From NCBI GenBank assembly GCA_041746675.1, contig JBGTGO010000050.1, positions 958 to 64,957 on the forward strand: 64,000 nt of DNA, read 5' to 3'. Positions within the stretch are counted from its first letter, which is position 1. Every line of letters begins with the position of its first letter. Shown in pieces: positions 15,601 to 53,195 of this stretch. This stretch comes from Pyrinomonadaceae bacterium (lineage in GTDB: Bacteria; Acidobacteriota; Blastocatellia; Pyrinomonadales; Pyrinomonadaceae). The notes beneath the pieces were generated by a model. The model saw only the letters and a list, made by a program, of their open reading frames with translations. It was not told the origin of the DNA and did not search any database. The position numbers and the translations under genes were made by a program.

Positions 15601-18600
15601 CCGCGTCCCGATGCTTCGGCTTTCGCAGTGGACACAACTTTCGTCGCTCCGCGCAACGCGACCGAGCGAATCATCGCCGGAATCTGGGCGGAGGTTTTAG
15701 GATTTAACGACATCGGCATCAACGATAATTTTTTTGAATTGGGTGGTAATTCATTGCTTGCCAGCCGTGTTATTTCCCGTCTGCGAAAGGCTTTCAATCT
15801 GGAAATGCCGCTGAGGACAATTTTTGAAGCACCGACCATCGCAGAATTAGCGAAAAAAACCTCATTTTACGGGCGGCAAAACGATTTCGTCCCGCTGAAT
15901 GTCTTGAAAAAAGCCGGAAGACCGGCGGCGATTCCGCTTTCTTTCGCCCAGCAGCGTCTCTGGTTTCTGGCGCAGATGGAAATCGATTCTTCAACTTACA
16001 ATATGAGCGAAGTCGTTCGTTTGGACGGAAAATTGCAGACGGAAGCACTGCGTTCCGCTCTGGAAAACGTCATCGGGCGGCACGAAATTCTGCGAACGTC
16101 TTTCGAGTCAATCGGCGGACAGCCTTCTCAAATCGTCGCTTCCGAAGCCTATGTTGATTTCTCCATCGCCGACTTGACCGATTTTCCATTTGACATGTGC
16201 GAAGCGGAAGCCCGCAAAATCGCTTCTGAATTTTCGGCACGAGCCTTTGATTTGACCGGTTCACCGCTGCTTCGCGTAAAAGTGATTAAACTTCAGGAAA
16301 CTGAACATTTACTCGCCGTCGTCTTTCACCACATTATCAGCGACGGCTGGTCGGTCGGGGTATTTCTCAAGGAATTGAGTGCGTTTTACGAAGCGGAAAT
16401 TTCCGAGTCTAACGCTTCGGTTGCCAAACTGCCGATTCAATACGCCGACTACGCTTTGTGGCAGCAGGAATGGCTGCGAACCGAACAATATGACCGGCAG
16501 TTGGAATTCTGGAAAGAGCATTTGGAAGGTGCGCCCGCGCTGCTCGAATTACCGACCGATTACCCGCGTCCCGCCGTTCAGCGTTATCGCGGGGCGCGAT
16601 GTTCGGCTTTTGTGTCGAATGATTTAACCAAAAAAATAAACGCACTCGGCAGACGCGAAGGTGCGACGCTGTTTATGACGCTTCTTTCGGCTTGGCAATT
16701 ATTGCTTTTGAGATACAGCGGACAGGAACGAATCGTCGTCGGAACGCCCATTGCCGGAAGAACGAAAACGGAAACCGAAAATCTGATCGGCTTTTTCGTC
16801 AACACATTAGCATTAAACGGCGATTTGTCGGGTAATCCGACGTTTAGAGAACTGCTGCGCCGAACCAGAGAACGTGCTCTTGATGCGTATGCCAATCAGG
16901 AACTGCCGTTTGAAAAACTTGTCGAAGCGATTAATCCCGAAAGAAGTTTGAGCTACGCACCTCTGTTTCAGGTGATGTTCACACTGCAAAACGCTCCGGC
17001 AGCGAACAGAGACTTTGCCGATTTAAAGCTGAATCGTGAAAAAACTGCGGGTAAAACGGCTAAATTTGATCTGAGTTTGGACGTTTACGAAAAAGCCGAC
17101 GGACTCGAACTCGAACTAGAATACGACACCGATTTGTTTGCCGAAGAAACCGTCCGGCAGATGCTCGAACATTTCCGCACGATTTTAGAAGCGATAACCG
17201 AAAATGCCGAACAACGGCTGGCGAGCGTTCCGGTTTTGACAGCGAACGAGCGGCATCAATTGTTCGACGAATGGAACAATTACGACACCGAAGTTCCGCC
17301 CGTCTGCCTGCACAAATTAATCGAAGCACACGTCGAGCAAACGCCCGATGCGATTGCCGTCGTCTGGCAAAACGAGCGGCTTTCCTACGCGGATTTGAAT
17401 GCGCGGGCAAACCGTCTGGCACATTTTTTACAAAAACAGGGCGTTAAACCTGAAACTATTGTCGGCGTTTATGTTGAACGTTCGCTTGATATGATTGTCG
17501 GAGTTTTGGGCGTGCTGAAAGCCGGCGGTGCGTATCTGCCGCTTGATGCCAATTATCCGGCGGAGAGATTGCAGCATATGGTCAGCGATGCCGGGGTTTC
17601 GATATTGATTTCGCAAGAAAATCTCAAATCGAAGACGGCGGAATTTTCTTCGCGGCAAATTATTTGTCTCGATTCCGATTGGTCGGAGATCAGCGGCGAA
17701 TCAGCCGATAATCCCGACAGCGATGTCGCGCCCGACAATCTGGCTTATGTGATTTTCACGTCCGGCTCAACCGGCAAATCGAAGGGCGCGATGATTACGC
17801 ACCGCAGCGTTGTCAGTGCTTACGCCGGTTGGGAAGACGCTTATAAGCTTTCGTCGCTGAAATGCCACCTGCAAATGGCGAGCTTTTCATTCGACGTGTT
17901 CACCGGAGATTTGACCCGCACACTGTGCAGCGGCGGAACGCTCGTTTTAGTTCCGACCGAATTTCTGCTCGAACCCGAAAAATTGGAACGATTGATGCGC
18001 GACGAAAAGACAGAGTGTGCAGATTTTGTTCCGGCGGTGATGCGTCCGTTAATCGAGTATCTGGAAAATACAGGGCAAAAACTTGATTTTATGAAGGTTG
18101 TTTCCGTTGGTTCGGACATCTGGCAGATGGATGAATTCCGTCGTCTGCGGCGCGTCTGCCGCGAAGACGCACTGGTCGTCAATTCTTACGGCATCACCGA
18201 AACGACGATTGACAGCACTTATTTCGAGATGACGGCGGAAGACGAAACTGCCGAAGGCATTATTCCAATCGGGCGACCCTTTGCCAACACGAAGCTTTAC
18301 ATACTCGACGACAACCGGAATCTTTTACCGGCACGTGTGCCGGGCGAATTATACGTCGGCGGAAATGGTGTCGGTCGCTGCTATTTGAATCGCCCCGAAT
18401 TAACCGCAGAAAAATTTATCGAATGGATGCCGTCCGGCGAATCCGCCGTGTTGCCGCTCAGATTATATAAAACGGGCGACTTCGCCCGCCGCCGCCACGA
18501 CGGAATGGTTGAAATTTTAGGACGCACCGATTATCAAGTGAAACTGCGCGGTTTTCGAGTCGAACTCGGCGAAATCGAAGCCGTTATTTCAACGCATCCC

Positions 18601-19296
18601 GACGTGAACGAATGCGTGGTCGCACTTCGTGAAGACATTCCCGGAAACAAGCAGTTAATCGCTTACCTGACGACCAAAGAAAATGGAATCAATTCCGCCG
18701 AACTGCGCCGTCACGTCAAATCCCTCCTGCCCGAATATATGATGCCCGCCGCGTTCGTGCTGATGAAAGAGTGGAAGCTGACACCGAACGGCAAAATTGA
18801 CCGCCGCCAATTGCCCGCACCCGAAGACACACTGATTTCCGCCGAAACCGAATACGCCGTGCCGCGCACGCCACTCGAAGAAAAAATGGTCGGGATCTGG
18901 TCGAATCTGCTGCGCCGCGAACACATCGGAATTAACGATAATTTCTTTGATCTGGGAGGTCATTCGCTGCTGGCAACGCAGGTTACGTCCCGCATCCGCG
19001 ATGCTTTCGGGATAGACATTCCGCTCAGAATGCTGTTTGAAACGCCGACGATTGCGGGCTTGGCGGAACAAATTTCTCACTTGATCGGTTCGGAGAATGG
19101 CGAACAATCAAATAGCTTTGAGACAAATTACAAAGAATCCACCGCCGCTACCGTGTCGCCGGAAGATAATGATTCGTTGCAATACGACGCGGAACTCGAG
19201 CGTTTGTTAGCCGAAATCGAAAGCGTTTCGGATGAGGAAGCACAGCAGCTTATTGCGGCGGAATCCGATTTTTCCTATGTTCCTTTAGCAGAATGA
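12655..19296 (+). CDS. Fusion protein: Wzx/MOP-family flippase domain + NRPS modules A-T-C-A-T
   Basis: A single uninterrupted ORF. The TTG at 12655 opens it, but the ATG at 12736 (MKKNLTIIFF…) is the more plausible start. Motifs, in order: the flippase-like membrane region, LAYVIYTSGSTGKPKG, FFELGGNSLLA, HHIISDGWS (16327-16347), LAYVIFTSGSTGKSKG and FFDLGGHSLLA. Confidence 0.9.
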   Translation: MNNRRFKVVRSKIPLALLFASLAADFLMKKNLTIIFFANFFTLLSGVVTSLLTAWALGPEGRGDLAVIVLYPNVVALAVGFGLPQAHRYFLAREPEEISPLFSNAVIFAVVTGILALAAAEWIVPSLIGTRSEAVVWLVKIYLINIPLALLYDLMAGMLEGSRQFKWAALARIVFFGIQSTVYFLLWNFGLLTVYTAALTMIVAQTANTLTASISVYRVLKPRWKPCWITWKKSITFGLKYHVGVVTSFTTLRLDQLMLSSMATSVEIGLYVIAVRLSEITTVLASSIAEVLMPEVAASKHAERSAQLLLRSLRLMIYVYLLILIPLFLLVPTLLEFAFGTEFLAAAGTLRLLLVASMVWSIGAIIISGLNGFGYPGLSTVSRLSSAVVTVFALLYWLPRYGIVGAALSSLVGYSVMLAVALFWLVKKNNIRLGEVFRPRLSDIPMKKFITVLSSRFNLETQANIIDAPKSDGFHQLFERQAAAQPDRVAIVCKGEQLTYGELNARANQLARHLRSLGAMPETLIPVCTDRSVEMAIGILGILKSGAAYVPIDPTYPAERIEFMLAEISAPFIVTQSSFLQSSAIKKILLDTDRELIAENSTDNPLPTAAAENLAYVIYTSGSTGKPKGAMLTHANLCHYVRALQHEFYLTPDDKYLHLASIAFSSARRHLLFPLAQGASVIIADEEQRMDALPLFKLIKEQSVTVFDTVPSFQRHCMNALLELDTEQRNDLLNNDLRLIVSASEPLLSDIPATWMFEFKHPARHVHMIGQTETSGIVSINHITEADAAGAVRTVSVGRSIANTKIYLLDENRQPVAPGKAGEMYVCGKGLGRGYLNRPELTVQKFIELSVENESDAEEFKVRRVCRTGDFARLLPDGRLECLGRQDFQVKVRGQRVELGEIEALLISNQNVGECSVIGHEDVPGTIQLVAYVVSRHSSDSLIEDLRILTKEKLPDYAQPSAFVLLNALPLNANGKIDRKNLPRPDASAFAVDTTFVAPRNATERIIAGIWAEVLGFNDIGINDNFFELGGNSLLASRVISRLRKAFNLEMPLRTIFEAPTIAELAKKTSFYGRQNDFVPLNVLKKAGRPAAIPLSFAQQRLWFLAQMEIDSSTYNMSEVVRLDGKLQTEALRSALENVIGRHEILRTSFESIGGQPSQIVASEAYVDFSIADLTDFPFDMCEAEARKIASEFSARAFDLTGSPLLRVKVIKLQETEHLLAVVFHHIISDGWSVGVFLKELSAFYEAEISESNASVAKLPIQYADYALWQQEWLRTEQYDRQLEFWKEHLEGAPALLELPTDYPRPAVQRYRGARCSAFVSNDLTKKINALGRREGATLFMTLLSAWQLLLLRYSGQERIVVGTPIAGRTKTETENLIGFFVNTLALNGDLSGNPTFRELLRRTRERALDAYANQELPFEKLVEAINPERSLSYAPLFQVMFTLQNAPAANRDFADLKLNREKTAGKTAKFDLSLDVYEKADGLELELEYDTDLFAEETVRQMLEHFRTILEAITENAEQRLASVPVLTANERHQLFDEWNNYDTEVPPVCLHKLIEAHVEQTPDAIAVVWQNERLSYADLNARANRLAHFLQKQGVKPETIVGVYVERSLDMIVGVLGVLKAGGAYLPLDANYPAERLQHMVSDAGVSILISQENLKSKTAEFSSRQIICLDSDWSEISGESADNPDSDVAPDNLAYVIFTSGSTGKSKGAMITHRSVVSAYAGWEDAYKLSSLKCHLQMASFSFDVFTGDLTRTLCSGGTLVLVPTEFLLEPEKLERLMRDEKTECADFVPAVMRPLIEYLENTGQKLDFMKVVSVGSDIWQMDEFRRLRRVCREDALVVNSYGITETTIDSTYFEMTAEDETAEGIIPIGRPFANTKLYILDDNRNLLPARVPGELYVGGNGVGRCYLNRPELTAEKFIEWMPSGESAVLPLRLYKTGDFARRRHDGMVEILGRTDYQVKLRGFRVELGEIEAVISTHPDVNECVVALREDIPGNKQLIAYLTTKENGINSAELRRHVKSLLPEYMMPAAFVLMKEWKLTPNGKIDRRQLPAPEDTLISAETEYAVPRTPLEEKMVGIWSNLLRREHIGINDNFFDLGGHSLLATQVTSRIRDAFGIDIPLRMLFETPTIAGLAEQISHLIGSENGEQSNSFETNYKESTAATVSPEDNDSLQYDAELERLLAEIESVSDEEAQQLIAAESDFSYVPLAE
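12736..13950 (+). other. Wzx/'polysaccharide biosynthesis protein' (MOP superfamily) membrane domain of the fusion ORF
   Basis: About a dozen hydrophobic segments with family-typical stretches (LTAWALGPEGRGDLAV, GIVGAALSSLVGYSVMLAV). Boundaries are approximate. Confidence 0.7.
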
Positions 19297-23176: not shown

Positions 23177-25702
23177 TTATAACTTCAAACTTCTGAGTCG
23201 CAAAGCATTCAAAATCACCGAAACCGAACTAAATGTCATCGCCGCCGAAGCGATCATCGGGCTTAAAAGTAAACCGATAAATGGAAACAAAATGCCCGCT
23301 GCGATTGGAACACCGACGAGATTGTAAATAAATGCAAAAAACAGATTTTGGCGAATGTTGCTCATCGTCGCTTCGCTTAATTTCTTAGCTTTTAAGATTC
23401 CGCGTAAATCACCTCTGAGTAAAGTTATATCAGCCGATTCCATTGCTACATCCGTTCCCGTTCCCATTGCAATTCCGACCTGTGCCTGAGCAAGTGCGGG
23501 AGCGTCATTAACACCATCGCCCGCCATTGCGACGATTTTTCCTTGGGCTTGCAATTCTTTAACCTTTGCCGCTTTTTGTTCGGGCAGAACATCTGCAAAA
23601 ACTTGGTCAATGTTCAATTTCTTTGCCACGGCTTCGGCGGTTTGTCTATTATCGCCCGTCATCATAATCACTTCGATATTTTGCCGATGGAGTTCGTCAA
23701 TCGCTTCTTTTGCCGTTTGTTTGACTGAATCAGCTACTCCGATCAGACCTGCGAATTTTCCGTCAACTGCTGCAAGCATTACGGTTTGACCTTCAACGCG
23801 AAGTGAGTTGAGAGCGTCGAGTTCGGAGTCCGGCATTTGGATATTTTTTTCGTCAAACATCTTCTGATTGCCGACCACGACTTCTTTTCCGCCGACTTTT
23901 CCAAAAATTCCTTTGCCTGTAACCGATTCAAAGTTTTCGGATTTTAGCAATTCGATGCCCTTATCTGCCGCACCCTCAACAATTGATTCGGCAAGCGGAT
24001 GCTCACTTGATTTTTCCAACGATGCGACCAATTTTAATAGTTCATCTTCACCAAGCTTAGATTCGTTGTAAGCAGAAACTTTCTGCAAACGTGGTCTTCC
24101 TTCGGTCAAAGTTCCGGTTTTATCAACGATAATCGTATTAACCTTTTCAAGTGTTTCCAAAGCTTCGGCTTTTTTGACCAAAACACCCGATTTTGCACCG
24201 TGTCCCGTGCCGACCATAATTGACATCGGAGTTGCCAAACCCAACGCACACGGGCAGGCGATGATTAAAACCGAAACCGCGGCAACAAGTGCATAGGAAA
24301 ATGAACCGAAGATCATCCAGACGACAAATGCGATGATGGCGACAAGAATTACGGCGGGAACAAAATATGCTGAAACAATATCGGCAAGCCTTTGAATCGG
24401 TGCTTGCGAACGCTGGGCTTCACCGACCATTCGGACGATCTGTGCGAGAAGTGTATCGCTTCCGACCTTTTCGGCTTTCATCGTGAACCCACGTTTTCCG
24501 TTGATCGTTCCGCCGATAATTTTATCGCCCGAAGTTTTTTCAACCGGAATTGATTCGCCCGTCACCATTGATTCATCAACATTCGTTTCGCCCTCTAAAA
24601 TAATTCCATCAACGGGAATTTTCTCGTTGGCTTTGACTCTTAAAGTTGCACCGATCTGCACATCTTTTAGATCAATCTCTTCCTCCATACCATCTTCAAA
24701 AACAACGATTGCCGTTTTTGGAGCAAGTCCAAGAAGTTCCCTAATTGCTGAAGATGTTTGACTTCTCGCACGGAGTTCTAAAACTTGTCCGAGCAAAACA
24801 AGCGTCGTAATCACCGCCGCCGCTTCAAAATATACGGCGATCAGGTTTTCCGCGTTTTTCATTGAAGCGGGGAAAATATTTGGTAAAAATATTGCGACCA
24901 GACTGTAAATGAAGGCTGCTCCCGTTCCCATTGCGACAAGTGTAAACATATTCGGGCTGGCGTTTTTAACCGATGCCCAAGCTCGCTCGAAAAAAGGAAA
25001 TCCGCCCCACAGCACAACGGGCGTTGCCAGAATAAATTGAATCCAAAGCGAAATTTGCGGCGGCACGATTTCATTAAAACCCGGAATCATTTCCGCCATT
25101 GCGAGTGCAAAAACGGGAATTGTCAACGCCGCCGAAATCCAGAATCGCCGTGTCATATCAATCAATTCAGGATCAGGTTCGTCGTCGAGTGAAATTACCA
25201 GCGGTTCAAGTGCCATTCCGCATTTCGGACAAGTTCCCGGACCGATCTGCAAAATTTCCGGGTGCATCGGGCAGGTATATTCCGTGCCTTCACTTTCTGC
25301 CTCAAGCTTTTCTTCTACTTTTTCTTCAAGGAAACTGTTCGGATTTTGGCGAAATTTATTTAAACATCCCTTTGAACAAAAATAATATGTTTCATCTCTA
25401 AAATCATATTCTCCCGCAGAAGTTTCGGAAGCAACGCTCATTCCGCACACGGGATCAATAAATTCGCCTGCGGGAGCGGCTTTCATATCGCCGTGCGAAA
25501 CAACCTTTTCACCGTTTTTGGTTTTTATATTTGCTTCGGCAACGTCGGAGATTTTGCTGTTATTTAGTTGTGAAACATATTTTGTTTTGCATCCAACGGC
25601 ACAGAAAAAAACCGTTTCGCCATTTTCAGATTCATATTTCGCAGCGGCACTTTCGGGTTTTACGGTCATTCCGCAAATCGGATCGATATATTCTTTACTC
25701 AT
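23177..25702 (-). CDS. copA: Copper-translocating P1B-type ATPase
   Basis: Two N-terminal TRASH/YHS-like domains (IDPICGMTV…FFCAVGC and IDPVCGMSV…YFCSKGC), a CPMHPE…CPKCGM metal-binding domain, the CPC motif ([12 protein letters not shown]), DKTGTLT, and GDGVNDAP. Confidence 0.95.
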
Positions 25703-26567: not shown

Positions 26568-26583
26568 CGGCACGATTGTTGCG
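26568..26583 (+). promoter_or_regulatory. Sigma-54 (-24/-12) type promoter of the metal efflux operon
   Basis: CGGCACGATTGTTGCG compared with the consensus TGGCACG-N4-TTGCW. The GG and GC dinucleotides have exact spacing. It lies 58 nt upstream of the ATG at 26641. Confidence 0.6.
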
Positions 26584-26640: not shown

Positions 26641-27306
26641 ATGAAATCAACCGATATAACTCAATTCCGCCAAAATAATTTCAGAGCAATTCTTGTGGTG
26701 ATGGTTGTTTTGATACTTTCCGCAGACACATTTCAAGTGTTTGCTCACGGCGGAGAAGATCACAGCGAAGAACCGAAGCAGAATGTTTCAGCGGATGCAA
26801 CAATGATGACGCAAGTCGTTCGTGCGGGTCATATTGAAGTTACGTTCAAACACGCAAGACTTGAGCCGGATACGAAAACCACCGCCCGGATTTTTGTGAC
26901 GGATTATGAAACAAATGCAGCAATTGAAAATGCAAAAATAACTTTGATTGTTGAAGGTGAAGGATTTCAAAAACAAGAAGTGGCGGCAAAAGCGACCGAA
27001 ACACCGGGCATCTTGTCGCTTGAATTGCCGCCGATTCCGATGGGTTCGGTGAAGCTCGATGTGCAGATAGAAGCCGGCGGAAAGAGCGAAAAAGCGAGTT
27101 TCGGTTCAATTGCGGTTGAACAACGTAAAGAGATGACAACATCGGCGGCACAGAGGAATTGGTTGTGGACGACGCTTTTCGGGTTGGGACTCGCTCTTAT
27201 CTTAACTTTGATCGGCGTTGGTATCTGGCTTGGAATTAAGCGTTATAAAGCAATTGAAAACAAAGAAGCAGCAGCAGAAGTTAAAAGCGAAATCGTTTCT
27301 GCGTAA
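26641..27306 (+). CDS. Membrane-anchored periplasmic protein with N-terminal HGGEDHS motif (YtkA/FixH-like beta-sandwich suspected)
   Basis: A signal peptide ending QVFA, then HGGEDHSEEP, then a roughly 130-aa beta-rich domain, then a C-terminal TM helix (WLWTTLFGLGLALILTLIGVGIWLGI). It is a paralogue of the N-terminal extension of the adaptor at 29506. I prefer the ATG at 26641 over the GTG at 26605. Confidence 0.55.
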   Translation: MKSTDITQFRQNNFRAILVVMVVLILSADTFQVFAHGGEDHSEEPKQNVSADATMMTQVVRAGHIEVTFKHARLEPDTKTTARIFVTDYETNAAIENAKITLIVEGEGFQKQEVAAKATETPGILSLELPPIPMGSVKLDVQIEAGGKSEKASFGSIAVEQRKEMTTSAAQRNWLWTTLFGLGLALILTLIGVGIWLGIKRYKAIENKEAAAEVKSEIVSA

Positions 27307-27338: not shown

Positions 27339-28889
27339 TTGAACAAAATATTTACAAAACCAAAAATTTCGGCGGTTGTTTTGATAGCCATAATTTGTTT
27401 ATCGACAATGGTTATTTATGTTCAGGCACAAAATCCGCCGCCGCCACAGACGACCACGCCGATTACCGATCCGGCACAGATCAGATTGAGTTCGACGGAG
27501 TTTATAAGTCAGGAAGGTTCGACGGTTGATAGATTGGTTGAAACAGCCTTTTCGCGTCGGGCTGATCTTTTGGCGGCTCGTCAGCGTTTGGCGGTTGCGG
27601 AGGGAAAACTGATACAAGCGGGACTTCGAGTAAATCCGGTTTTAAATAGTGAGTATGGTAGTCCGCGATTTTTGGGCGGCGAGGCGGAAAATGATTTTTC
27701 AGTCGGCGTGTCGCAGGTTTTTGAACTCGGCGGCAAACGCCGTAAGCGGGTCAGAGTTGCCGAACTTGAAATTGCTCAGATCGGGGCGGAAGTCGCCGCA
27801 TTGGAAAGACAGATTGCTGCCGAAATCCGCATCACTTATGCCGCCGCCGTTGCCGCTGCCCGACAACTCGATGTTTTGGAAAAACTGATCGCGGCGGATA
27901 ACGAAATTGTCCGTGCAACCGAAGCCCGTCTGACCGAAGGCGATGTCGCACCGCTTGATGTCAATTTGGTCAAAGTCGAAAGAAGTCGGTTGCAGATTCA
28001 AGCGATTGAAGCGAAAAACAATCTTGAAACCGCATTGATAACTTTGCAGTCTTTGACCGGAACGGATGTTGCCGAAAGTCTGAAGATCGCACCGCAGTCT
28101 GAACGTCCGCCGCGACTTGATCTCGGATTGTCGGAATTAACTAACCTTGCGTTAACGGGACGAAACGATCTGCAGGCGGCGAGAATTTCCGAAGAACTCG
28201 GCACGGCACGAATTGATCTGGCGAAATCTTTAGCAACACCGAACGTCGCGGGTTCGGTTAAATATTCGCGGAACAAAGGAATTATTGATTTGCCGACAAC
28301 GGCAGGCGGCGGTTTTGCGATTGATAAAGATAACGCACTGACGTTTGGCGTTTCGGTTGAATTGCCGTTTTTTAATCGCAATCAGGGAGAAGTTGCAGCG
28401 GCGACGAGTGAAAAGGTTTTAGCGACGCGAAATCGTGAATTTTTGGAAGCCTCGATCAGACGCGATGTGGCAATAGCTTATCGAAATTATCGGGCGGCGG
28501 CGGAAAAGTTGGTTTTGTATTCGACGCAGATTCTGCCGCTTTCGGAGGAGAATCTGAAATCCGTGCGGGCGGCTTATGGTTTCGGTGAGTTTTCTGTTTT
28601 TGAAGTTGTTAATGAACAGAGGCGTTTAAGCGAAAACCTTGCTGGATACACCGAAAGTTTGCGTGAATATTACACGGCATTGGCGGAACTCGAAACAGCA
28701 CTCGGTGCGTCGCTTCCGGCTTCGGCATTTGCAGATGACGATACTTCGGTTTTGCCGAAGAAAGAAGATGTTCCAAATCAGGTTGAGAAAGGGAAATTAT
28801 TAAATTCGCTTTTCGAGAAAGAAAAGGAGACGGATTTGACGAAGATAACAAAAAATTCAAATAAAAAAAATAAAGAGGAAAACAAATGA
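27339..28889 (+). CDS. TolC/CusC-family outer membrane efflux protein
   Basis: Signal peptide and two repeated alpha-helical/beta-barrel halves typical of OMFs (…RADLLAARQRLAVAEG…, …RNDLQAARISEELG…). First gene of an OMF-adaptor-RND set. TTG start. Confidence 0.85.
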   Translation: MNKIFTKPKISAVVLIAIICLSTMVIYVQAQNPPPPQTTTPITDPAQIRLSSTEFISQEGSTVDRLVETAFSRRADLLAARQRLAVAEGKLIQAGLRVNPVLNSEYGSPRFLGGEAENDFSVGVSQVFELGGKRRKRVRVAELEIAQIGAEVAALERQIAAEIRITYAAAVAAARQLDVLEKLIAADNEIVRATEARLTEGDVAPLDVNLVKVERSRLQIQAIEAKNNLETALITLQSLTGTDVAESLKIAPQSERPPRLDLGLSELTNLALTGRNDLQAARISEELGTARIDLAKSLATPNVAGSVKYSRNKGIIDLPTTAGGGFAIDKDNALTFGVSVELPFFNRNQGEVAAATSEKVLATRNREFLEASIRRDVAIAYRNYRAAAEKLVLYSTQILPLSEENLKSVRAAYGFGEFSVFEVVNEQRRLSENLAGYTESLREYYTALAELETALGASLPASAFADDDTSVLPKKEDVPNQVEKGKLLNSLFEKEKETDLTKITKNSNKKNKEENK

Positions 28890-29503
28890 AGAAAATTTTA
28901 TTATTTACAGTTTTTGCAGTAGTTGCGGGATTAGCCGCCGCTTGTTCAAATTCAACGGAGACAACAACAACGGATACTCCGGCAATGACAAATACGACAA
29001 CCAATACGACGGCTGAAAATACTGAAACTGCACCTAAAAAGGAAGAAGATGCTCCGGCATCCGTCAAAGCAGCGTTTCCCGATGCAGACAGTTTTACCAA
29101 ACAGCATAAGGACATTCCGGCGGAGGCAATTGCCGATATTGAAAAAGACACGGGAGCAAAAATTCCTGACACGGATCATCATTCGTATCTGGCGTTTTCA
29201 AATGCGGGCGGAAGCCGCAAACAGGTTGGAGCGGCAACGGTTATTAAGGCTGACGGTAAAGAATTTGTCGTCATCTACGAAAATAAAGACGATTCGCCTG
29301 CGATCAAAGAGGTTCGCGGCGAAGGCGTTTCGGCGGACTTTTTGAAACAGTTTGCCGGAAAAGGACACGATGATAAATTTCAAGTCGGAGCAGATGTAAA
29401 AGCCGACGGAGTTGACGAAGGAATGGCGAAAGCGATTGCCGAAGCCGTCAGAGTTGACTCGTTGACAATGCAGACACTTTACGGTGCGGCACATTCACAC
29501 TAA
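28886..29503 (+). CDS. Lipoprotein of unknown function, translationally coupled to the OMF gene
   Basis: Lipobox LAAAC, a Thr-rich linker, then a globular domain with a pattern weakly reminiscent of FMN_bind domains (…FLKQFAGKG…) but without the S/TGAT flavinylation motif. Its start overlaps the OMF stop (ATGA). Confidence 0.5.
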   Translation: MKKILLFTVFAVVAGLAAACSNSTETTTTDTPAMTNTTTNTTAENTETAPKKEEDAPASVKAAFPDADSFTKQHKDIPAEAIADIEKDTGAKIPDTDHHSYLAFSNAGGSRKQVGAATVIKADGKEFVVIYENKDDSPAIKEVRGEGVSADFLKQFAGKGHDDKFQVGADVKADGVDEGMAKAIAEAVRVDSLTMQTLYGAAHSH

Positions 29504-29505: not shown

Positions 29506-31533
29506 ATGAATTCAAAATTCAAACTTCAAAATTCAAATTTGGCGGTCGGCAAAGCAATTATGTGTGCGGCAGTTTTTTTGTTGCTTGCCGCTTACTGCTT
29601 ACCGCCTGCCGTTTCCGCCCACGAAGGCGAAGATCACAGCAAAGATAAGCCGCAAACGACCGTGGCGACGACCGGAAAAAGTGCGGTAACAATTGCCCGT
29701 GCCGAACGCAATATTCAAACTGACAACGGGCAATTCAATGTTCAGTTTCAGCGTGCTCCCGCCGATGTACGGACTGGCGAAACATCGCAGTTCGCCGTGC
29801 AGATCGCCGAAAAGGTCGAAGGTGGTTTCGGCGGAAGTGAACCTCTGCCGCTGACCGATGCAAACATTACGGCGAATATCACGACTTCTAACGGACAGAT
29901 AATTGCCAGTAAATTGCCGCTTAAATTTGAAGATGGTTTTTACTTTGGAAAATATGCTTTTTCAAATGCGGGAAACTTTAAGATCGTATTGAATGCGACA
30001 ACTTCGGATAACCGCAGTCTGAGCGTTGATTTCCCGGTGAGCGTCGTCAAAGCCCCGATCAGTTGGACGTTTTGGCTGATTATGACTTTGTTCGGTTTGC
30101 TGCTGATTGGCGGAGTCGGTGTGGTCGTTTATAAAACCCGTGGTTATAACGGCAATAAGCGTCTGCAATTGAAAAGAGTCGCTCCCGTTGCGATTGCTGC
30201 TATTTTGATATTTGTTTTGGTTGCTTTCACATTTGCCTACATTACACCGCCACGTCAGACGCGGAGTTTAGCCGAAATGCCGAAACTCGGAACAGGTGCG
30301 ACCGCCGCAGAAACCGAAGTCGCCAATTCTCTGCAAACGACTCTGACCGTTCCAAAGGAATCGCAATTGCTTTTCGGCATCAAGACCGAAGCACTTGAAA
30401 CACGCACGATCACCGCCGGTTTGAAAGTAACCGGAACGGTCAAAGCACGTCCCGAAGCACAAGCTGTCGTCGTGCCGCCAGTTGCGGGACGGATCGTTTT
30501 AAAGCAGGGAATTACCGTTGGTTCGGTGGTAAGTCGGGGCGAACAGGTCGGTTATGTCGAACAGGTTTTGGATGTGTCCGGACAGGTTGGACTTGAACAG
30601 CAAAGGCTCGAAGTCGAAGCCCAGCAACGCGAAATCGAAGCCAGACGTTTGGATATTAAAAATTCCATTTTGCAACTGCAATCACAGCAAGCCGAACAGC
30701 GTGCTAATGCCCAACAAGCAAAAACCCGTCTGGCTCAAGCTCAGAGAGAATTGCGGCGTTCGATAAATCTGGTCGAAGTAAATGCCGTTCCGCAAAAACG
30801 TGTCGAGGAAGCACGGACAGCCGTAAATGTTGCGGAGCAGGAAGTTACAGCGGTGGAAAAACAGGTTGTGTTGCTTGATAATCAGATCAAACAGACAAGT
30901 GCCGGAACAAATATTTTTCGTTTGCCAAAGGTTAATCAGCCAAATAAAAGATTCTCTCTGACTGCACCCGTTACGGGAATTATTAACGATATTAAGGCGA
31001 CGACCGGACAGCAAATTGAAACCGGAACGGAGATTTTGTCCATCAGCAATCTTTCGACCGTCTTAATCGAAGCACAGGTTTTCGAGAGCGATCTGCCGAT
31101 GGTTCGGGAATCAACGCGAGCGAGTTTTACAACCGCCGCATTGAGTGGAGAAGTTTATACGATTGGAACACCCGACGAAGACGGCAGACTCGTTTCCATC
31201 GGTCAGATCGTTGACCCGCAGACACGTACAATTCCGGTCATTTACGAGATGAAAAATCCCGGCAACCGTCTGCGGGACGGAATGTTTGTCGAGATCACGA
31301 TTGACACCAGCGGCGACCGAAAAGTTTTAGCCGTGCCGAAAAAAGCGGTTATCACAGAACAGGGACAGACCTTTGTATTCGTCTTTGACGGCGGCGAAAT
31401 TTTTGAAAAACGCCCCGTCGCACTCGGAGCGGAAGGCGAAGATTTTTACGAAGTGAAAACAGGCTTGAAGGAAAATGACAGAGTTGTCGTCGAGGGCGTT
31501 TATCAACTTCGCTCGACACAACCGGGAAGTTAA
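29506..31533 (+). CDS. RND efflux periplasmic adaptor (CusB/CzcB-like) with an extra N-terminal periplasmic domain and TM hairpin
   Basis: A signal peptide ending AVSA, then HEGEDHSKDKP and a beta-rich domain, then two TM helices. A typical adaptor follows: coiled-coil hairpin QRLEVEAQQREIEARRLD…, beta-barrel and C-terminal domains. Confidence 0.85.
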   Translation: MNSKFKLQNSNLAVGKAIMCAAVFLLLAAYCLPPAVSAHEGEDHSKDKPQTTVATTGKSAVTIARAERNIQTDNGQFNVQFQRAPADVRTGETSQFAVQIAEKVEGGFGGSEPLPLTDANITANITTSNGQIIASKLPLKFEDGFYFGKYAFSNAGNFKIVLNATTSDNRSLSVDFPVSVVKAPISWTFWLIMTLFGLLLIGGVGVVVYKTRGYNGNKRLQLKRVAPVAIAAILIFVLVAFTFAYITPPRQTRSLAEMPKLGTGATAAETEVANSLQTTLTVPKESQLLFGIKTEALETRTITAGLKVTGTVKARPEAQAVVVPPVAGRIVLKQGITVGSVVSRGEQVGYVEQVLDVSGQVGLEQQRLEVEAQQREIEARRLDIKNSILQLQSQQAEQRANAQQAKTRLAQAQRELRRSINLVEVNAVPQKRVEEARTAVNVAEQEVTAVEKQVVLLDNQIKQTSAGTNIFRLPKVNQPNKRFSLTAPVTGIINDIKATTGQQIETGTEILSISNLSTVLIEAQVFESDLPMVRESTRASFTTAALSGEVYTIGTPDEDGRLVSIGQIVDPQTRTIPVIYEMKNPGNRLRDGMFVEITIDTSGDRKVLAVPKKAVITEQGQTFVFVFDGGEIFEKRPVALGAEGEDFYEVKTGLKENDRVVVEGVYQLRSTQPGS

Positions 31534-31705: not shown

Positions 31706-32944
31706 ATGAGATCAACATTTTTAATTACAATTTTATCAGTAATAGTAGCGGCATTCGTCTTTAGCGGATGTAATCAACCGACGGCGGAAAAACCATCTGA
31801 AACAAAATCAACCGAAACAAAATCCGTTGACATAAAACGCACGGAATTAACCGAAAACGCGAATTATGCGATGGATATTAAGGTTGAATCGCCGGAAGTA
31901 AATTCAGAGAAGGAAGTTACGTTTAATTTCTCGGTCAAAGATAAGGAAGGAAAACCGTTTGATAACCTAAAAATAGTTCACGAGAAATTGATCCATCTTT
32001 TAGTCGTATCTGACGACCTCGCGTTTTTTGAACACGTTCATCCTGAAAAACAGGCGGATGGAGGTTTTAAGCTGAATTACAAATTTCCGACCGGCGGAGT
32101 TTATAAACTTTACGCCGATTTTACGCCGGAAGATTCGCCGCAGATCGTCAATGTTTTTGATGTCAATGTCGGCGGAGAACCACGTCAAAAAACACCTCTG
32201 ACGGCAGATGTGGATTACAAAAAAACGGTTGATGGTCTGACCTTCACGATGAAACCCGGCGGTAATTTGAAAGCCGCCAACGGTGTTGCTCTTAATTTTT
32301 ATGTAACGGACGAAAACGGAAAAGCCGTTACCGATCTGCAACCGTATTTGGGTGCGATGGCACATTTTGTCGTCATCAGCGAAGACGCAAGCAAATTTTT
32401 GCACGTTCACGCGGAAGGCGGCAAAATGACCGAAACAAAAGGCACCGGCGGACACGAAGGACACGGCGATCAGCACGGCGGGATGGAAATGGATGTGAAA
32501 CCCGACGTGAAGGATGCGGAAACGCCGACCGTGATGGCTCACACCGAATTCCCGACCGGCGGATTGTATAAACTCTGGGGACAATTTCAGCGAAACGGCA
32601 AAGTTATCACCGTTCCGTTTGTAGTAAATGTGGCGGCGGCTGATGCAGCAAGCACGTCGAAAAATGTTGAAATTCCGAAAGACGCATACAAAATTACGGT
32701 CAGCAAAAACGGATTTTCGCCGGAAGAAGTAACGGTGGACAGAAACAAATTTTCAAAACTCGCATTCTTGCGGACGGATTCGGAAAACTGCGGAAGTGAA
32801 ATAGTTTTTAAAGATTTAGACATTAAGAAAAAATTGCCCGTCGGCGAAGTTGTATTGGTTGATCTGCCTGAAAATCTAAAGGGCAAAACGCTGAATTTCG
32901 CCTGCGGGATGGATATGATGAAAGGAAAATTGATCATAAATTAA
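31706..32944 (+). CDS. Periplasmic lipoprotein with two His-containing metal-binding beta-sandwich domains and a C-terminal cupredoxin-like domain
   Basis: Lipobox FSGC. Repeated HVHPE…FPTGGVYKLYADF and LHVHAEGG…FPTGGLYKLWGQF modules. A His-rich linker GGHEGHGDQHGGMEMD. A C-terminal …LNFACGMDMMKGKLIIN, typical of cupredoxin_1-type domains. Confidence 0.6.
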   Translation: MRSTFLITILSVIVAAFVFSGCNQPTAEKPSETKSTETKSVDIKRTELTENANYAMDIKVESPEVNSEKEVTFNFSVKDKEGKPFDNLKIVHEKLIHLLVVSDDLAFFEHVHPEKQADGGFKLNYKFPTGGVYKLYADFTPEDSPQIVNVFDVNVGGEPRQKTPLTADVDYKKTVDGLTFTMKPGGNLKAANGVALNFYVTDENGKAVTDLQPYLGAMAHFVVISEDASKFLHVHAEGGKMTETKGTGGHEGHGDQHGGMEMDVKPDVKDAETPTVMAHTEFPTGGLYKLWGQFQRNGKVITVPFVVNVAAADAASTSKNVEIPKDAYKITVSKNGFSPEEVTVDRNKFSKLAFLRTDSENCGSEIVFKDLDIKKKLPVGEVVLVDLPENLKGKTLNFACGMDMMKGKLIIN

Positions 32945-32987: not shown

Positions 32988-33587
32988 ATGAAAGAAACAA
33001 TGGGCAAAAAAAACGACATTAAAATCACAGACACAATGGATCATAAAGGAGATATGAAACATTCGGATACAGATAAAAGCGATATGAAAACGAAAGATAC
33101 CGCGAACAATAAAATGGAGGGCAAACATCAGATGATGTCGGGCAGTTATGCGAGATTCGGGGCGATGATCGCAACTTCGACCGCTGTCATGTTCGGCTTG
33201 ATGTATCTGAATACATACGCTTCAAATCACGTTTATTTTAGTGAAACACGTTTTTATATGGCGTTTTATATGGGTGCGGTGATGGCGATCATTATGCTGC
33301 TCTTTATGCTCAATATGTATAAAGACTGGAAAGTGAATGCGGCTATTCTGGCAGTCAGCGTCGTTGTTTTCGCGGGTTCATTGTGGCTCGTGCGAAGTCA
33401 GACGACCATCGAAGACGTTTCGTGGATGAAGGCGATGATTCCGCATCACTCGATAGCGATCCTAACGAGCGAACGGGCGAATATAAAAGACCCGCGTGTG
33501 CGAAAACTTGCCGACAGCATTATAGAAGCCCAACGCAGAGAAATTGACGAAATGAAAGCGTTGATCAAAGACCTTGAGAGTAAATAA
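32988..33587 (+). CDS. DUF305-family membrane protein with a Met/His/Asp-rich N-terminus
   Basis: An N-terminal DTMDHKGDMKHSDTDKSDMKTKD, three hydrophobic segments, and a C-terminal DUF305-type motif MIPHHSIAILTSE…DPRVRKLADSIIEAQRREIDEM. Confidence 0.65.
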   Translation: MKETMGKKNDIKITDTMDHKGDMKHSDTDKSDMKTKDTANNKMEGKHQMMSGSYARFGAMIATSTAVMFGLMYLNTYASNHVYFSETRFYMAFYMGAVMAIIMLLFMLNMYKDWKVNAAILAVSVVVFAGSLWLVRSQTTIEDVSWMKAMIPHHSIAILTSERANIKDPRVRKLADSIIEAQRREIDEMKALIKDLESK

Positions 33588-33620: not shown

Positions 33621-36600
33621 ATGTTAAATGCGATAATAAAATTTTCTCTGCAAAACCGCCTGATCGTCGTGGCGGTGGCATCTTTACTGCTCGTTTGGGG
33701 AACTTACGTTGCCGTCAATTTGCCGGTTGATGTCTTGCCCGATCTGAATAAACCGACGGTGACGATCTTGACGGAAGCGGGCGGACTTGCTCCCGAAGAA
33801 GTTGAAACGCTCGTTTCGTTTCCGATCGAAACGGCGATGAACGGCGTGCCGGGAGTAACGCGTGTGCGGTCGCAGAGCGGCATCGGACTTTCGGTGATCT
33901 ATGTCGAATTCGATTGGGGAACGGATGTTTATCGCAATCGTCAACTGGTTGCCGAAAAACTTGCTCAAGCCCGCGAACAATTACCCGCAAATGTTTCGCC
34001 GACGCTTGCTCCGATCTCTTCGATAATGGGCGAAATTATGCTCGTTTCGGTCAGATCGAAATCGGGCAAAACCGATCCGCTCGATGTCCGCACGTTGGCT
34101 GATTGGACGATTCGCCCGCGACTTTTAACAATTCAGGGAATTGCACAAGTTATCAATATCGGCGGCGGTGTCAAGCAATATCAGGTTCTGGTTACGCCCG
34201 AAAAACTCAAACAATTCGGCATCACGATCGAAGAAATTTCTGATGCACTCGAAAAATCGAACAGCAATTCGACGGGCGGTTTTGTTGACGCACAATCGCA
34301 GGAATATCTGGTCAGAAATCTGGCACGTTTTTATTCGGTTGATGAACTGAAAAACACCGTCGTCGCTTACCGCAACAACACGGCGATCAAGGTCGGCGAT
34401 GTGGCAAAGGTCGAATTCGGGGCAAAGATCAAACGCGGCGACGCGGGTTCAAACGGAACGCCCGCCGTGATTATGTCAATTCAGAAACAACCCGGTGCAT
34501 CGACGCTTGAATTGACGGAAACAATCACCAAAGCACTTGATGAACTGCAAGCAAATTTGCCGGACGATATTGAGGTCAATTCCAATTTGTTTCGGCAGGC
34601 GAATTTTATTGATACTTCGATCTCAAACGTCATCGAAGCACTGCGGGACGGAGCGATTCTGGTCGTTATCGTTTTGTTCCTGTTTCTGCTTAATTTCCGC
34701 ACGACATTTATTACTCTGACGGCGATTCCGCTCTCGTTTGTTGTTACATTTCTGATTTTCAGAGCCTTTGATATTTCGATAAACACAATGACGCTCGGCG
34801 GTTTAGCGGTTGCCATCGGAGAACTCGTGGACGACTCGATCGTTGATGTCGAGAACATTTTCCGAAGGTTGAGGGAAAACCGGACACTCGAAAATCCGCG
34901 TCCGCCGCTTGAAGTTATCTATCACGCATCGTTGGAAATTCGCTCGTCAATCGTCTATGCGACGATCATCGTTGCACTTGTGTTTATGCCGCTTTTCGCA
35001 CTTTCCGGCGTGGACGGCAGATTGCTTGCTCCGCTCGGACTGGCATATATTACTGCATTAGTTGCGTCTTTGTTTGTCAGTCTGACGGTAACGCCCGTTT
35101 TGTCTTCTTACCTTTTGCCGAAAATGAAGGCGATGCACGATGAAAAGGACGGCTTTTTGGTGCGGTTTTTGAAAAAGTGGGATGAAAAACTTCTGCATCG
35201 AACTCTGCGGCATCCGTGGCTTGTTATCGGCGGAGCAACTGTTTTATTTTTGATCGCAATTTCGACTCTGCCGTTTGTCGGAACATCGTTTCTGCCCGAA
35301 TTCAACGAGGGAACGCTGACGGTCAACGTGCAGGCACAGCCCGGAACTTCGCTCTCGGAAAGCAACCGCATCGGACAAATTGCCGAAAAACTTCTGCTCG
35401 AAGTGCCGGAAGTTATTTCGACGGGAAGACGAACCGGACGAGCCGAATTGGACGAACACGCGGAGGGCGTTCACTATACGGAAATTGATGTTGACCTGAA
35501 AAAAGACGGACGCGAACGTGAGGAAGTTCTCCACGATATACGCGACAAACTGGCTTTAATTCCGGGCGTAACAACCAACGTCGGACAGCCGATCTCGCAC
35601 CGCATTGACCACTTGCAATCAGGTGTGCGGGCTCAGATCGCCGTCAAACTTTTCGGCGACAATCTGCAAACTTTGCGTTCAAAAGCCGAAGAGATACGCA
35701 ACGTGATGGAAGGCGTTCCGGGAGCGACCGATGTATCTATCGAAAAACAGGTTTTGATTCCGCAAATCCAGTTTCAGGTAAACCGCTCAAGTGCCGCTCA
35801 ATACGGACTCAAACCGGGTGAAATATCGGAAACTCTCGAAACCGCACTCAATGGCAAAGTCGTGTCCGAAGCCGTCGAAGGTCAGCGGCGTTTTGATGTC
35901 GTCGTTCGTTTTGCCGATGAAGCGAGAAACAATCTCGATGCTCTTAGAAACGTAACGATTGACACGCCGCAGGGAACTCAAATTCCCGTTTCAGCAGTTG
36001 CGACAATCGAAAATCTGCCGGGACCGAATCAGGTTTTACGCGAAAACACACAACGAAGAATTGTTATCCAATCCAACACCGCCGGACGCGATCTCGGTTC
36101 GGTCGTCGGTGATATGCGTGAGAGGATCACCGCTCAGGTTGATCTTCCCGAAGGTTATTTTATCGAATACGGCGGACAGTTTCAGGCTCAGCAGGAAGCT
36201 ACCCGCACGCTTTCGTTGCTGACGGTTTTCTCGCTGATCGCAATTTTCTTTATTTTGATCAAAGCCCTCGGCGATTGGCGAACTGCATTGCAGGTAATGA
36301 TCAATATTCCGCTCGCCCTGATCGGTGCGATTGCCGCACTACTTCTGACGGGCGGAGTGTTCTCGATCGCCACTCTCGTCGGATTTATCTCGCTCGTCGG
36401 CATTACTTCGAGAAACGGAATTATGATGCTTTCGCATTATCTGCATTTGATCCGCGAAGAAGGCGAAGATTTTACCGAAGAAATGATTATTCGCGGCTCG
36501 CTCGAAAGATTAGTTCCGGTTTTGATGACCGCTCTGACCGCCGGATTATCTCTAATACCGCTGGCAATTGCCTCCGGCGAACCCGGTAAGGAAATTCTCC

Positions 36601-36812
36601 ATCCGCTCGCCGTCGTCGTCATCGGCGGAATTTTGACATCAACTCTTCTCGATCAATTGGTAACTCCGGCGATATTTTACAAATTCGGAAAACCCGTGGC
36701 AGAGAAAATTATCGCCCAACGCGAAGCGGAAAAATCGGGCGTTGAAAATATGTTTGGCGAAGAAGAAATGGTGAAAACCGATGTTCCGCCTTATTCGGAA
36801 GATTTGAAATAA
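33621..36812 (+). CDS. Heavy-metal efflux RND transporter (CusA/CzcA family)
   Basis: 1063 aa. The N-terminus MLNAIIKFSLQNRLIVVAVASLLLVWG…LPVDVLPDLNKPTVTI is typical of HME-RND pumps. Twelve TM segments are expected, with two large periplasmic loops. Confidence 0.9.
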   Translation: MLNAIIKFSLQNRLIVVAVASLLLVWGTYVAVNLPVDVLPDLNKPTVTILTEAGGLAPEEVETLVSFPIETAMNGVPGVTRVRSQSGIGLSVIYVEFDWGTDVYRNRQLVAEKLAQAREQLPANVSPTLAPISSIMGEIMLVSVRSKSGKTDPLDVRTLADWTIRPRLLTIQGIAQVINIGGGVKQYQVLVTPEKLKQFGITIEEISDALEKSNSNSTGGFVDAQSQEYLVRNLARFYSVDELKNTVVAYRNNTAIKVGDVAKVEFGAKIKRGDAGSNGTPAVIMSIQKQPGASTLELTETITKALDELQANLPDDIEVNSNLFRQANFIDTSISNVIEALRDGAILVVIVLFLFLLNFRTTFITLTAIPLSFVVTFLIFRAFDISINTMTLGGLAVAIGELVDDSIVDVENIFRRLRENRTLENPRPPLEVIYHASLEIRSSIVYATIIVALVFMPLFALSGVDGRLLAPLGLAYITALVASLFVSLTVTPVLSSYLLPKMKAMHDEKDGFLVRFLKKWDEKLLHRTLRHPWLVIGGATVLFLIAISTLPFVGTSFLPEFNEGTLTVNVQAQPGTSLSESNRIGQIAEKLLLEVPEVISTGRRTGRAELDEHAEGVHYTEIDVDLKKDGREREEVLHDIRDKLALIPGVTTNVGQPISHRIDHLQSGVRAQIAVKLFGDNLQTLRSKAEEIRNVMEGVPGATDVSIEKQVLIPQIQFQVNRSSAAQYGLKPGEISETLETALNGKVVSEAVEGQRRFDVVVRFADEARNNLDALRNVTIDTPQGTQIPVSAVATIENLPGPNQVLRENTQRRIVIQSNTAGRDLGSVVGDMRERITAQVDLPEGYFIEYGGQFQAQQEATRTLSLLTVFSLIAIFFILIKALGDWRTALQVMINIPLALIGAIAALLLTGGVFSIATLVGFISLVGITSRNGIMMLSHYLHLIREEGEDFTEEMIIRGSLERLVPVLMTALTAGLSLIPLAIASGEPGKEILHPLAVVVIGGILTSTLLDQLVTPAIFYKFGKPVAEKIIAQREAEKSGVENMFGEEEMVKTDVPPYSEDLK

Positions 36813-38489: not shown

Positions 38490-38505
38490 TGGCATAATCT
38501 TTGCT
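38490..38505 (+). promoter_or_regulatory. Sigma-54 (-24/-12) type promoter of the regulator operon
   Basis: TGGCATAATCTTTGCT compared with the consensus TGGCACG-N4-TTGCW, with exact GG/GC spacing. It lies 37 nt upstream of the ATG at 38542. Confidence 0.6.
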
Positions 38506-48149: not shown

Positions 48150-48254
48150 TATGTTTAACCGGCAATTCTATCAGCGTTACAACATAAGACGCACTAACCA
48201 GCCAAACGGTTACAGCAGATATATTTTTGCGACAAAATTTGAACAAAAAACCTC

Positions 48255-50975: not shown

Positions 50976-53195
<2,220 letters not shown>

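Follow-up and report, generated by a model that had tools for sequence, protein, structure and literature searches.

Heavy-metal pumps of the resistance-nodulation-division (RND) class are understood mainly through Cus, which handles Cu(I)/Ag(I) with Met ligands and the carrier CusF, and through Czc/Zne. In E. coli, CusF serves as the periplasmic carrier and CusB, the adaptor of this heavy-metal efflux (HME)-RND system, bears a flexible Met-rich N-terminal tail that receives the metal; in CopC, His1 starts the folded domain and its partner ligands come from the fold. Published work describes CopC proteins that bear either a Cu(II) His site or a Cu(I) Met site, or the two together, and a Helicobacter pylori protein, CrdA, that has no His and binds metal via a Met-rich loop (PMC9182242). 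Its gene, crdA (HP1326), groups with HP1327 (crdB), HP1328 and HP1329 as copper-handling genes (PMC9182242), and HP1326-HP1329 have been named the CrdAB-CzcBA efflux transporter (PMC12319023). YtkA/CtaK domains deliver copper to cytochrome oxidase in B. subtilis (PMC13344008), and in Synechocystis the HME-RND copper resistance system CopBAC works with CopM, a DUF305-type copper-binding protein (PMC4335983). Here we describe a locus from a Pyrinomonadaceae bacterium (Acidobacteriota; assembly GCA_041746675.1, contig JBGTGO010000050.1, positions 958 to 64,957 of the forward strand). This whole stretch of 64,000 nucleotides is referred to as the window, and positions are counted from its first letter. 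Within it, a small open reading frame (ORF), ORF1, heads a row of efflux and copper-related genes, and a module homologous to ORF1 forms the N-terminus of the RND periplasmic adaptor encoded downstream. On balance we lean towards reading ORF1 as a tethered periplasmic metallochaperone, and the first ~185 residues of the adaptor as its paralogous acceptor copy.

A preliminary description of this locus had proposed one module in two copies, and comparison of the two families bears this out, the homology of ORF1 with adaptor residues 1-215 extending along all that the two have in common. ORF1 and the adaptor share 25 of 83 aligned residues in a direct BLASTP comparison (E 4e-6), and the ORF1 family aligns with the adaptor family in hhalign at 99% probability (E 4.2e-18). 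The 172 aligned columns cover the signal peptide, the motif that follows it, the beta domain and the first transmembrane (TM) helix, the TM helix of ORF1 corresponding to the first helix of the adaptor. The stand-alone alignment (A3) comprised 89 relatives, and the adaptor alignment (A2) comprised residues 1-270 of the window adaptor with 52 full-length relatives, hand-picked from 120 listed matches so that motif-less sequences were deliberately kept. At the predicted cleavage junction the sequences read ...QVFA|HGGEDHS in ORF1 and ...AVSA|HEGEDHS in the adaptor. A codon pattern for A-H-[G/D/E]-G-E-D-H occurs at exactly two sites in the 3.48-Mb genome, both in these genes, and a reversed-pattern control gave none. 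Since the N-termini of homologs align to the ATG at 26641, we took this as the ORF1 start rather than the GTG at 26605. Of the common layout first described for the two copies, the signal peptide ending in Ala, the beta domain and the TM segments stand; the size given for the domain, 130-150 residues, does not, the folded part spanning ~105-118 residues.

The AlphaFold2 model of ORF1 (89-sequence alignment; mean predicted local distance difference test score, pLDDT, 87.7) places a helix at residues 169-219 after a beta-sandwich, and hydropathy analysis marks a single TM segment besides the signal peptide, at residues 179-197. The tail beyond it (IKRYK...) is basic and hence expected to be cytoplasmic, so that ORF1 is modelled as a type-I tethered periplasmic protein with a short basic cytoplasmic tail. 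At its C-terminus (27288-27306) is a conserved E-[IV]-V-S-[AV], whose Ser is invariant in nine close relatives. For the adaptor, residues 1-270 were modelled from a 53-sequence alignment (mean pLDDT 80), and hydropathy identified two TM segments, at residues 190-208 and 228-246. The loop between them, YKTRGYNGNKRLQL, is basic and therefore expected to be cytoplasmic, with the second helix bringing the chain back out to the periplasm, which fits the TM hairpin anticipated in the preliminary description. The C-terminal 370 residues match RND periplasmic adaptor models (TIGR01730, 129 bits against a cut-off of 94.9; HlyD_D23, 85.6 bits against 30, 3.9e-24). By its layout, the fusion resembles the product of joining an ORF1-type gene to an adaptor whose own N-terminal TM anchor was retained, and this retention would account for the hairpin. 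In both models the conserved tip lies outside the fold, on a 20-25-residue tail of low confidence (pLDDT 44-58). Residues 39-184 of the adaptor contain no Met, no Cys and only two His, both in the tip; the ORF1 ectodomain (residues 36-166) contains four scattered Met and four His, and a Met-rich Cu(I) loop motif of the MxxMPGM type was looked for there and is not present. Within the adaptor sandwich, A66-E67-R68, R83, D87, R89, E92, E102, E105, G106 and F108 are invariant, also in sequences that lack the tip. A lipoprotein reading of ORF1 or the adaptor was considered and ruled out, there being no Cys near the cleavage site.

Structure searches with the predicted models agree with the metal-binding character that had been suspected for this module, placing both copies in a fold of periplasmic copper and metal binders with CrdA clearly first. 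In VIA-align, the ORF1 sandwich matches CrdA (9ll2_A) with Z 14.5 and a root-mean-square deviation (rmsd) of 1.5 over 101 of 108 residues (next row 11.3), and the adaptor sandwich matches it with Z 12.8 and rmsd 2.0 over 103 of 108 residues (next row 11.1); Foldseek returns CrdA for the adaptor sandwich with E 1.6e-5 and a TM score of 0.72 on the target. The rows under CrdA are mostly copper or metal binders, including HftA, Tp34, DUF4426, P19/FetP, PmoD and CopC, the last with Z 8.1 for ORF1 (5icu) and a Foldseek E value of 1.8e-3. Generic Ig-like domains such as filamin, macroglobulin and CBM score Z 8-10. The fold is thus common to CrdA and both modules; the candidate metal site is not.

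The tip itself is strongly conserved among the free proteins. In nine of nine close relatives of ORF1, A35, H36, G38, E39, D40 and H41 are invariant, and across the 89 stand-alone relatives (18-66% identical to ORF1) H36, G38, H41, E66, K70 and G123 are at least 90% conserved and N92 is invariant. Wider sampling came from a profile search (A1) over 1.84 billion cluster representatives. A strict tip rule, requiring HxxxxH within the first 100 residues and right after a hydrophobic stretch, was passed by 121 of the 150 listed profile matches, 79 of them reading HGGEDH; like other tip shares for stand-alone proteins this one leans upward, given that the motif is built into profiles A1 and A3 as conserved columns. 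The 29 failures, inspected by eye, include 7-8 fragments without an N-terminus and several true motifs that the rule missed. Among the 121 relatives that passed, Ala precedes the first His (position -1) in 105, Gly does so in 7, Ser in 5, and Pro, Gln or Val in the other 4; at position -3, 82 have Val or Ala, and the residue there is almost always small or aliphatic. The first His falls between positions 14 and 91, and always directly after the -3/-1 site whatever the length of the signal peptide. The pattern A-H-[GE]-G-E-x-H is also found in all 11 stand-alone homologs from genomes of the same family as the window (two of them unpublished, G032 and G017), and Ala occupies -1 in 97 of 98 motif-bearing adaptor copies. 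The earlier placing of a His directly after a canonical signal-peptidase site therefore extends to the relatives, and we infer cleavage at Ala|His, which would leave His at the N-terminus of the mature protein. That this His1 coordinates metal in a brace-like manner, through its free amine together with its imidazole, as had been put forward for the module, is a tentative suggestion that we regard as doubtful. An amino-terminal Cu(II)- and Ni(II)-binding (ATCUN) motif was also considered and is ruled out by the Gly at predicted mature position 3 in both H-G-G-E-D-H and H-E-G-E-D-H.

Of the 243 cluster representatives that the profile search returned at E <= 1e-3, 87 reach <= 1e-10 and 19 reach <= 1e-30; a word-based search returned just 8 relatives. 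Among the best 150 of the 243, proteins of ~200 aa that stand alone occur together with 32 proteins of 380-650 aa. Fusion of the module to an RND adaptor proved general for the latter, 31 of the 32 long relatives among the matches listed carrying adaptor domains and the remaining one an OEP domain, and a search with the window adaptor identified 222 relatives that share its N-terminal extension. The family is large and has no name, and its fusions to adaptors extend over several phyla: among the source names of its members are adaptors labelled Bacteroidota and Thermodesulfobacteriota, as well as “cobalt-zinc-cadmium efflux system membrane fusion protein” and “hypothetical protein”. Its neighbours in the ESM Atlas are Acidobacteriota clusters without a name, and the closest cluster that has one is YtkA-like (score 0.85). 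Pfam YtkA (PF13115) matches 33 of the 89 stand-alone relatives at E <= 0.01 (best 1.8e-8). Domain scans of 35 of the 150 listed relatives (the 32 long ones and three of 259-289 aa) recovered YtkA at E <= 0.001 in six, some of them fused, with one (P0224, 29.1 bits) above the gathering score of 25.9 bits. Neither ORF1 nor the window adaptor matches Pfam YtkA, so that membership of the YtkA family leans on the relatives and not on the window proteins. A canonical YtkA protein of 149 aa is encoded elsewhere in the genome (contig C40:88530-88784). Among 61 genomes of the Pyrinomonadaceae family, 24 have a match to the module at E <= 1e-5, and in 7 of these 24 (one unpublished) the free copy is encoded on the same strand as the fused one, at a distance of 2.4-3.1 kb.

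Gene order around ORF1 homologs was surveyed by a scan with the peptide pattern AHGGEDH[GS][DE] in one genome per species. It identified at least 602 stretches, 352 of them encoding relatives, and the best 80 loci were kept; these are nearly all labelled Acidobacteriota and are uninformative on the full range of the family. One of them, L084, is labelled Dehalococcoidia, the other 79 being Acidobacteriota-type, and a binning error or gene transfer is possible. Counting only loci with enough sequence 3' of the ORF1 homolog, an outer-membrane factor (OMF) follows in 76 of 77, a lipoprotein between OMF and adaptor in 58 of 58, the N-part of the adaptor in 57 of 57, its C-part in 53 of 53 and the RND pump in 35 of 36. 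The order ORF1-OMF-lipoprotein-adaptor-P412-(DUF305)-RND, in which P412 denotes a lipoprotein-like protein, is conserved in Acidobacteriota. ORF1 is the fastest-evolving component, with 25-44% identity across loci versus 73-90% for the pump.

A sigma-54-type element precedes ORF1 (Table 1). Across the whole window the sigma-54 consensus has 29 matches against 24.9 expected, which is not above chance, so the site gains weight only from comparison across loci. There, 49 of 78 loci have GGCAY-N5-TYGC in the 250 bp preceding the ORF1 homolog, and it occurs only 30 times elsewhere in 910,863 bp of the same loci, corresponding to ~0.01 expected per 260 bp. Judging from these promoter sequences, a sigma-54 promoter before ORF1 probably drives the entire cluster. 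A second element of this type lies upstream of a 175-aa ORF, which is followed by an NtrC-type regulator and a histidine kinase (Table 1); 3 of the 80 loci (L019, L026 and L082) have such a pair close to the cluster, most loci ending earlier.

The pump belongs to the CusA/CzcA heavy-metal RND family (Table 1), and among solved structures it scores highest against CusA (542 bits), followed by ZneA (478 bits). The Met triad of CusA, which we take to be M573/M623/M672 and mapped via an 8-residue chain offset on the CusA alignment, corresponds to N569, Y619 and H664 of the pump, residues conserved in 8 of 8 cluster relatives. Replacement of the triad by Asn, Tyr and His places the pump outside the Cus type that handles Cu(I)/Ag(I). 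Two His/acid motifs, RAELDEHAEGVHYTEIDVD and PISHRIDHLQSG, are conserved, as are RAE[LM]DEHAEGVHYTEIDVD, PISHR[IL]DHLQSG and AIGELVDD[SA]IV of TM4 in 8 of 8 cluster relatives; TM4 of the pump itself reads AIGELVDDSIVDVEN, with an Asp-Asp pair that is presumably AcrB-like. The pump possibly represents a distinct HME subgroup.

In the mechanism that we favour, signal peptidase would cut after Ala and expose H-G-G-E-D-H in ORF1, or H-E-G-E-D-H in the adaptor, on a flexible tail of 20-25 residues, which would hang from a CrdA/YtkA-like sandwich held at the inner membrane by a TM helix. A metal ion in the periplasm may be captured by the His/Glu/Asp tip, to which conserved acidic residues of the sandwich perhaps add ligands; the ion would then move to the copy borne by the adaptor and from there into the pump, whose periplasmic cleft has conserved His/Glu/Asp where CusA has its Met triad. 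The N/O-donor ligands, the adaptor module free of Met and Cys and the neighbouring copper proteins point to Cu(II), or otherwise to another divalent ion, and not to Cu(I)/Ag(I). The idea that the module stands in place of a CusF-like chaperone or a Met-rich tail finds support as well: a Pfam scan of the operon proteins detected no CusF (PF11604), the only one in the genome being on another contig, and the adaptor has no Met tail of the CusB type. In its most specific form, this reading becomes a sigma-54-controlled Cu(II) efflux route, in which a His site made by signal peptidase passes Cu(II) to the adaptor domain through like-with-like docking and on to a Met-less, His-lined pump. We consider the full route quite unlikely as specified; its logic would be that of CopZ and the CopA metal-binding domain, transposed to the periplasm. 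A complex prediction of adaptor residues 39-184 with ORF1 residues 36-166 gave a score of 0.00, that is, no answer, and speaks neither for nor against binding.

Several observations weigh against the reading of ORF1 and the adaptor module as metal donor and acceptor. Some concern the tip. Besides the upward lean of the stand-alone shares, the failures of the tip rule include ~6 relatives with only the first His (AHGGVDDE, AHGGGEET) and ~7 with only the second (AQGGEDH, ANGGEDH, AGGGDDHTH). For adaptor copies, 98 of 120 listed matches pass the rule, a share biased upward in that these 120 are the adaptors most like the window's own N-terminus; in a fairer sample of 58 clusters picked via the ORF1 motif, A-HxxxxH is found in only 18 adaptors, with two more cut by the analysed slice and one bearing Ser at -1. 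Other adaptor tips read ANGDDDH, ANGEDDH, AHGGVDDE or AHEEDE, and AENEPK, AQEKQQ and AAEAPA contain no His at all. Loss of the tip in many adaptors implies that it is not essential for the adaptor copy, and from these sequences it appears near-constant in the free protein and optional in the fused one. Further, the low model confidence of the tail that carries both His, the second five residues after the first, means that no fixed site can be drawn. Others concern ancestry and distribution. ORF1 has only sub-threshold matches in Pfam and NCBIfam (DUF7248, 15.9 bits; a pilin-like model, 13.1 bits), 37 of the 61 family genomes have no module match at E <= 1e-5, and some carry a fused copy without a free one. 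Profile searches against PDB sequences reached CrdA at E values of 0.13 and 0.44, which are not significant, and we do not claim homology to CrdA by sequence; the wider profiles placed filamin-type Ig repeats first, ahead of CrdA, and the close-family profile had no match. As CrdA has a Met-rich loop and no His, the site is also not one inherited from CrdA. Finally, where metal identity is judged from context, His/carboxylate ligands and the Asp-Asp pair of TM4 suit Zn, Co or Ni equally well.

Other explanations must account for the same features. The sandwich could serve structure or assembly without handling metal (as a spacer, as a docking surface for the OMF, lipoprotein or pump, or as a means of oligomerisation), with the His tip minor or lineage-specific. 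Ig-like sandwiches are common scaffolds, as the filamin, macroglobulin and CBM scores and the filamin repeats among PDB sequences illustrate, and many adaptors without a His tip keep the invariant AER, R83, D87, R89, E92, E102 and E105. Such a role is nonetheless unlikely in our view, since the tip is the most conserved feature of stand-alone relatives that are otherwise 18-44% identical, the top structural matches are copper or metal binders by a clear margin, and the invariant acidic residues would suit cation binding too. The module could instead supply metal to cuproenzymes, much as CtaK/YtkA supplies the CuA site, and load the multicopper oxidase or the cupredoxin-domain protein rather than the pump. 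The only YtkA-family proteins studied experimentally, in the accessible text of PMC13344008, support oxidase metallation; the YtkA profile recurs among the relatives, and the operon encodes both a multicopper oxidase and a Cupredoxin_1 protein. This proposal seems improbable given the physical fusion of the module to RND adaptors and the near-constant OMF gene after ORF1, and a multicopper oxidase was found in just 2 of 80 loci (L071 and L082), upstream and on the opposite strand, although many loci end before the place it occupies in the window. More improbable still is a signal peptide that stays uncut or is cut elsewhere, leaving H-x4-H as only a His/acid patch within the chain and close to the membrane: the 4 of 121 relatives with Pro, Gln or Val at -1 would allow it, but Ala, Gly or Ser in 117 of these 121 profile matches and in 98 of 98 adaptor sequences, a -3 residue that is nearly always small or aliphatic, and a His right after the site irrespective of signal peptide length argue otherwise.

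Turning to the neighbourhood, ORF lists and Pfam and NCBIfam scans showed a tightly packed gene row on the plus strand at 26.6-37.8 kb, running from ORF1 through the multicopper oxidase (Table 1). The start of the lipoprotein gene overlaps the OMF stop and its own stop overlaps nothing; the Atlas neighbours of its product are unnamed Acidobacteriota clusters, with a weak FMN_bind lead (0.82). P412 has His-rich stretches (HVHPEK, HVHAEGG and GGHEGHGDQHGG) and is kept in most related clusters, often with a second short cupredoxin-like match after it. As a possible third copy of the module, P412 is only weakly linked to it, hhalign giving a probability of just 22%. The DUF305/CopM-like protein scores 45 bits against NCBIfam CopM, under the 90-bit cut-off of that model. 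The multicopper oxidase, 291 aa long with a TTG start, resembles a small two-domain type, unless its start was mis-called. Elsewhere in the genome, a CusF-like domain lies inside a 302-aa open frame (contig C36:44812-44979). In the rest of the window, G+C content falls to 0.32-0.36 at 48001-52000, compared with about 0.45-0.49 elsewhere, and a very long open frame of 2213 aa occupies 12655-19296 on the plus strand.

Table 1. Coordinates in the window of ORF1, the fused adaptor, their parts, and neighbouring genes and elements.
Feature	Position	Strand	Basis or description
Divergent Cu-type (CopA-type) P1B ATPase, two YHS domains and HMBD	23177-25702	-	TIGR01511 619 bits (cut-off 397 bits); Pfam domains
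Sigma-54-type -24/-12 element, CGGCAC-N5-TTGCG, CGGCACGATTGTTGCG	26568-26583	+	58 bp upstream of ORF1 ATG
ORF1	26641-27306	+	221 aa; no Pfam/NCBIfam family
ORF1 signal peptide, residues 1-35, ending V-F-A	26641-26745	+	Hydrophobic segment at residues 16-34; predicted cleavage site
ORF1 tip, H36-G-G-E-D-H41, predicted mature N-terminus	26746-26763	+	Conservation; model pLDDT ~57
ORF1 beta-sandwich, residues 55-159	26803-27117	+	AlphaFold2 model, pLDDT mostly 95-98
ORF1 TM anchor, residues 179-197, then tail IKRYKAIENKEAAAEVKSEIVSA	27175-27231	+	Hydropathy and model
OMF (OEP/TolC family)	27339-28889	+	516 aa; Pfam OEP 8.6e-50
Lipoprotein between OMF and adaptor	28886-29503	+	205 aa; no known family
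RND periplasmic adaptor with fused N-terminal module	29506-31533	+	675 aa; HlyD_D23, TIGR01730
Adaptor tip, H39-E-G-E-D-H44, predicted mature N-terminus after ...V-S-A	29620-29637	+	Predicted cleavage
Adaptor beta-sandwich, residues 64-181	29695-30048	+	AlphaFold2 model, confident here; invariant residues
Adaptor TM hairpin, helices 187-212 and 218-246, basic cytoplasmic loop	30064-30243	+	Model and hydropathy
P412, lipoprotein-like	31706-32944	+	412 aa; C-terminal Cupredoxin_1, weak YtkA-like region, His-rich stretches
DUF305/CopM-like protein	32988-33587	+	199 aa; Pfam DUF305 2.2e-10, above cut-off
HME-RND pump	33621-36812	+	1063 aa; TIGR00914 889.4 bits (cut-off 701.45)
Small multicopper oxidase	36930-37805	+	291 aa; Cu-oxidase domains
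Second sigma-54-type element	38490-38505		Upstream of 175-aa ORF
NtrC-type sigma-54 response regulator	39066-40439	+	Candidate operon regulator
Histidine kinase	40432-41505	+	Candidate operon regulator

For heavy-metal RND pumps other than Cus and Czc/Zne, the module provides a defined candidate for the way in which substrate is acquired in the periplasm. Its family comprises at least 352 genomic loci, annotated just as “hypothetical protein” or as a plain adaptor, and it can help to annotate many adaptors whose N-terminal extensions are unexplained. If the tip does bind Cu(II), periplasmic copper oxidation by the multicopper oxidase of the operon would be linked to export.

Each ingredient of this arrangement has a precedent, in CrdA, YtkA, the CusF/CusB tail or the CopC His site. 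For the combination, the tip and the pairing of free and fused copies, no description was found in literature searches whose coverage stopped short of subscription journals; the four tip motif strings were not found as a protein motif in the full-text literature, 'hegedh' occurring only inside other words, judging by titles. With the YtkA-like family (PF13115; B. subtilis CtaK and the C-terminal domain of YcnJ), the module shares the character of a membrane-anchored extracytoplasmic copper-handling domain; the known role of that family is oxidase assembly and not efflux, and an N-terminal HGGEDH tip was not found described for it, within the accessible text (PMC13344008). H. pylori CrdA, like ORF1, is a small secreted sandwich protein whose gene lies beside those for an OMF, an adaptor and an HME-RND pump, but it has no His and uses a Met-rich loop (PMC9182242), in contrast to ORF1 with its H-G-G-E-D-H tip and to the Met-free adaptor module. 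As solved, CrdA also has no TM anchor, unlike ORF1, and in the accessible parts of the literature covered no description of a fused adaptor copy was found for H. pylori.

The split between ORF1 and CrdA mirrors that between the His and Met sites of CopC proteins. The module resembles the CopC His site in having His as the predicted first mature residue, a second His and carboxylates nearby, and a related sandwich fold; it differs in that both His are on a tail modelled as disordered, and His1 is replaceable in some relatives. The window operon recalls CopBAC/CopM of Synechocystis, by description rather than by sequence, in possessing a DUF305/CopM-like gene, and to our knowledge an ORF1-like module is not known in that system. 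The same logic as in ORF1 and the fused module, a carrier plus an N-terminal metal-receiving part on the adaptor, is found in CusF/CusB of E. coli. The present system differs in its fold, in the use of His/Glu/Asp for Met, in a receiver that consists of an entire folded domain set behind a TM hairpin, and in a pump without the Met triad.

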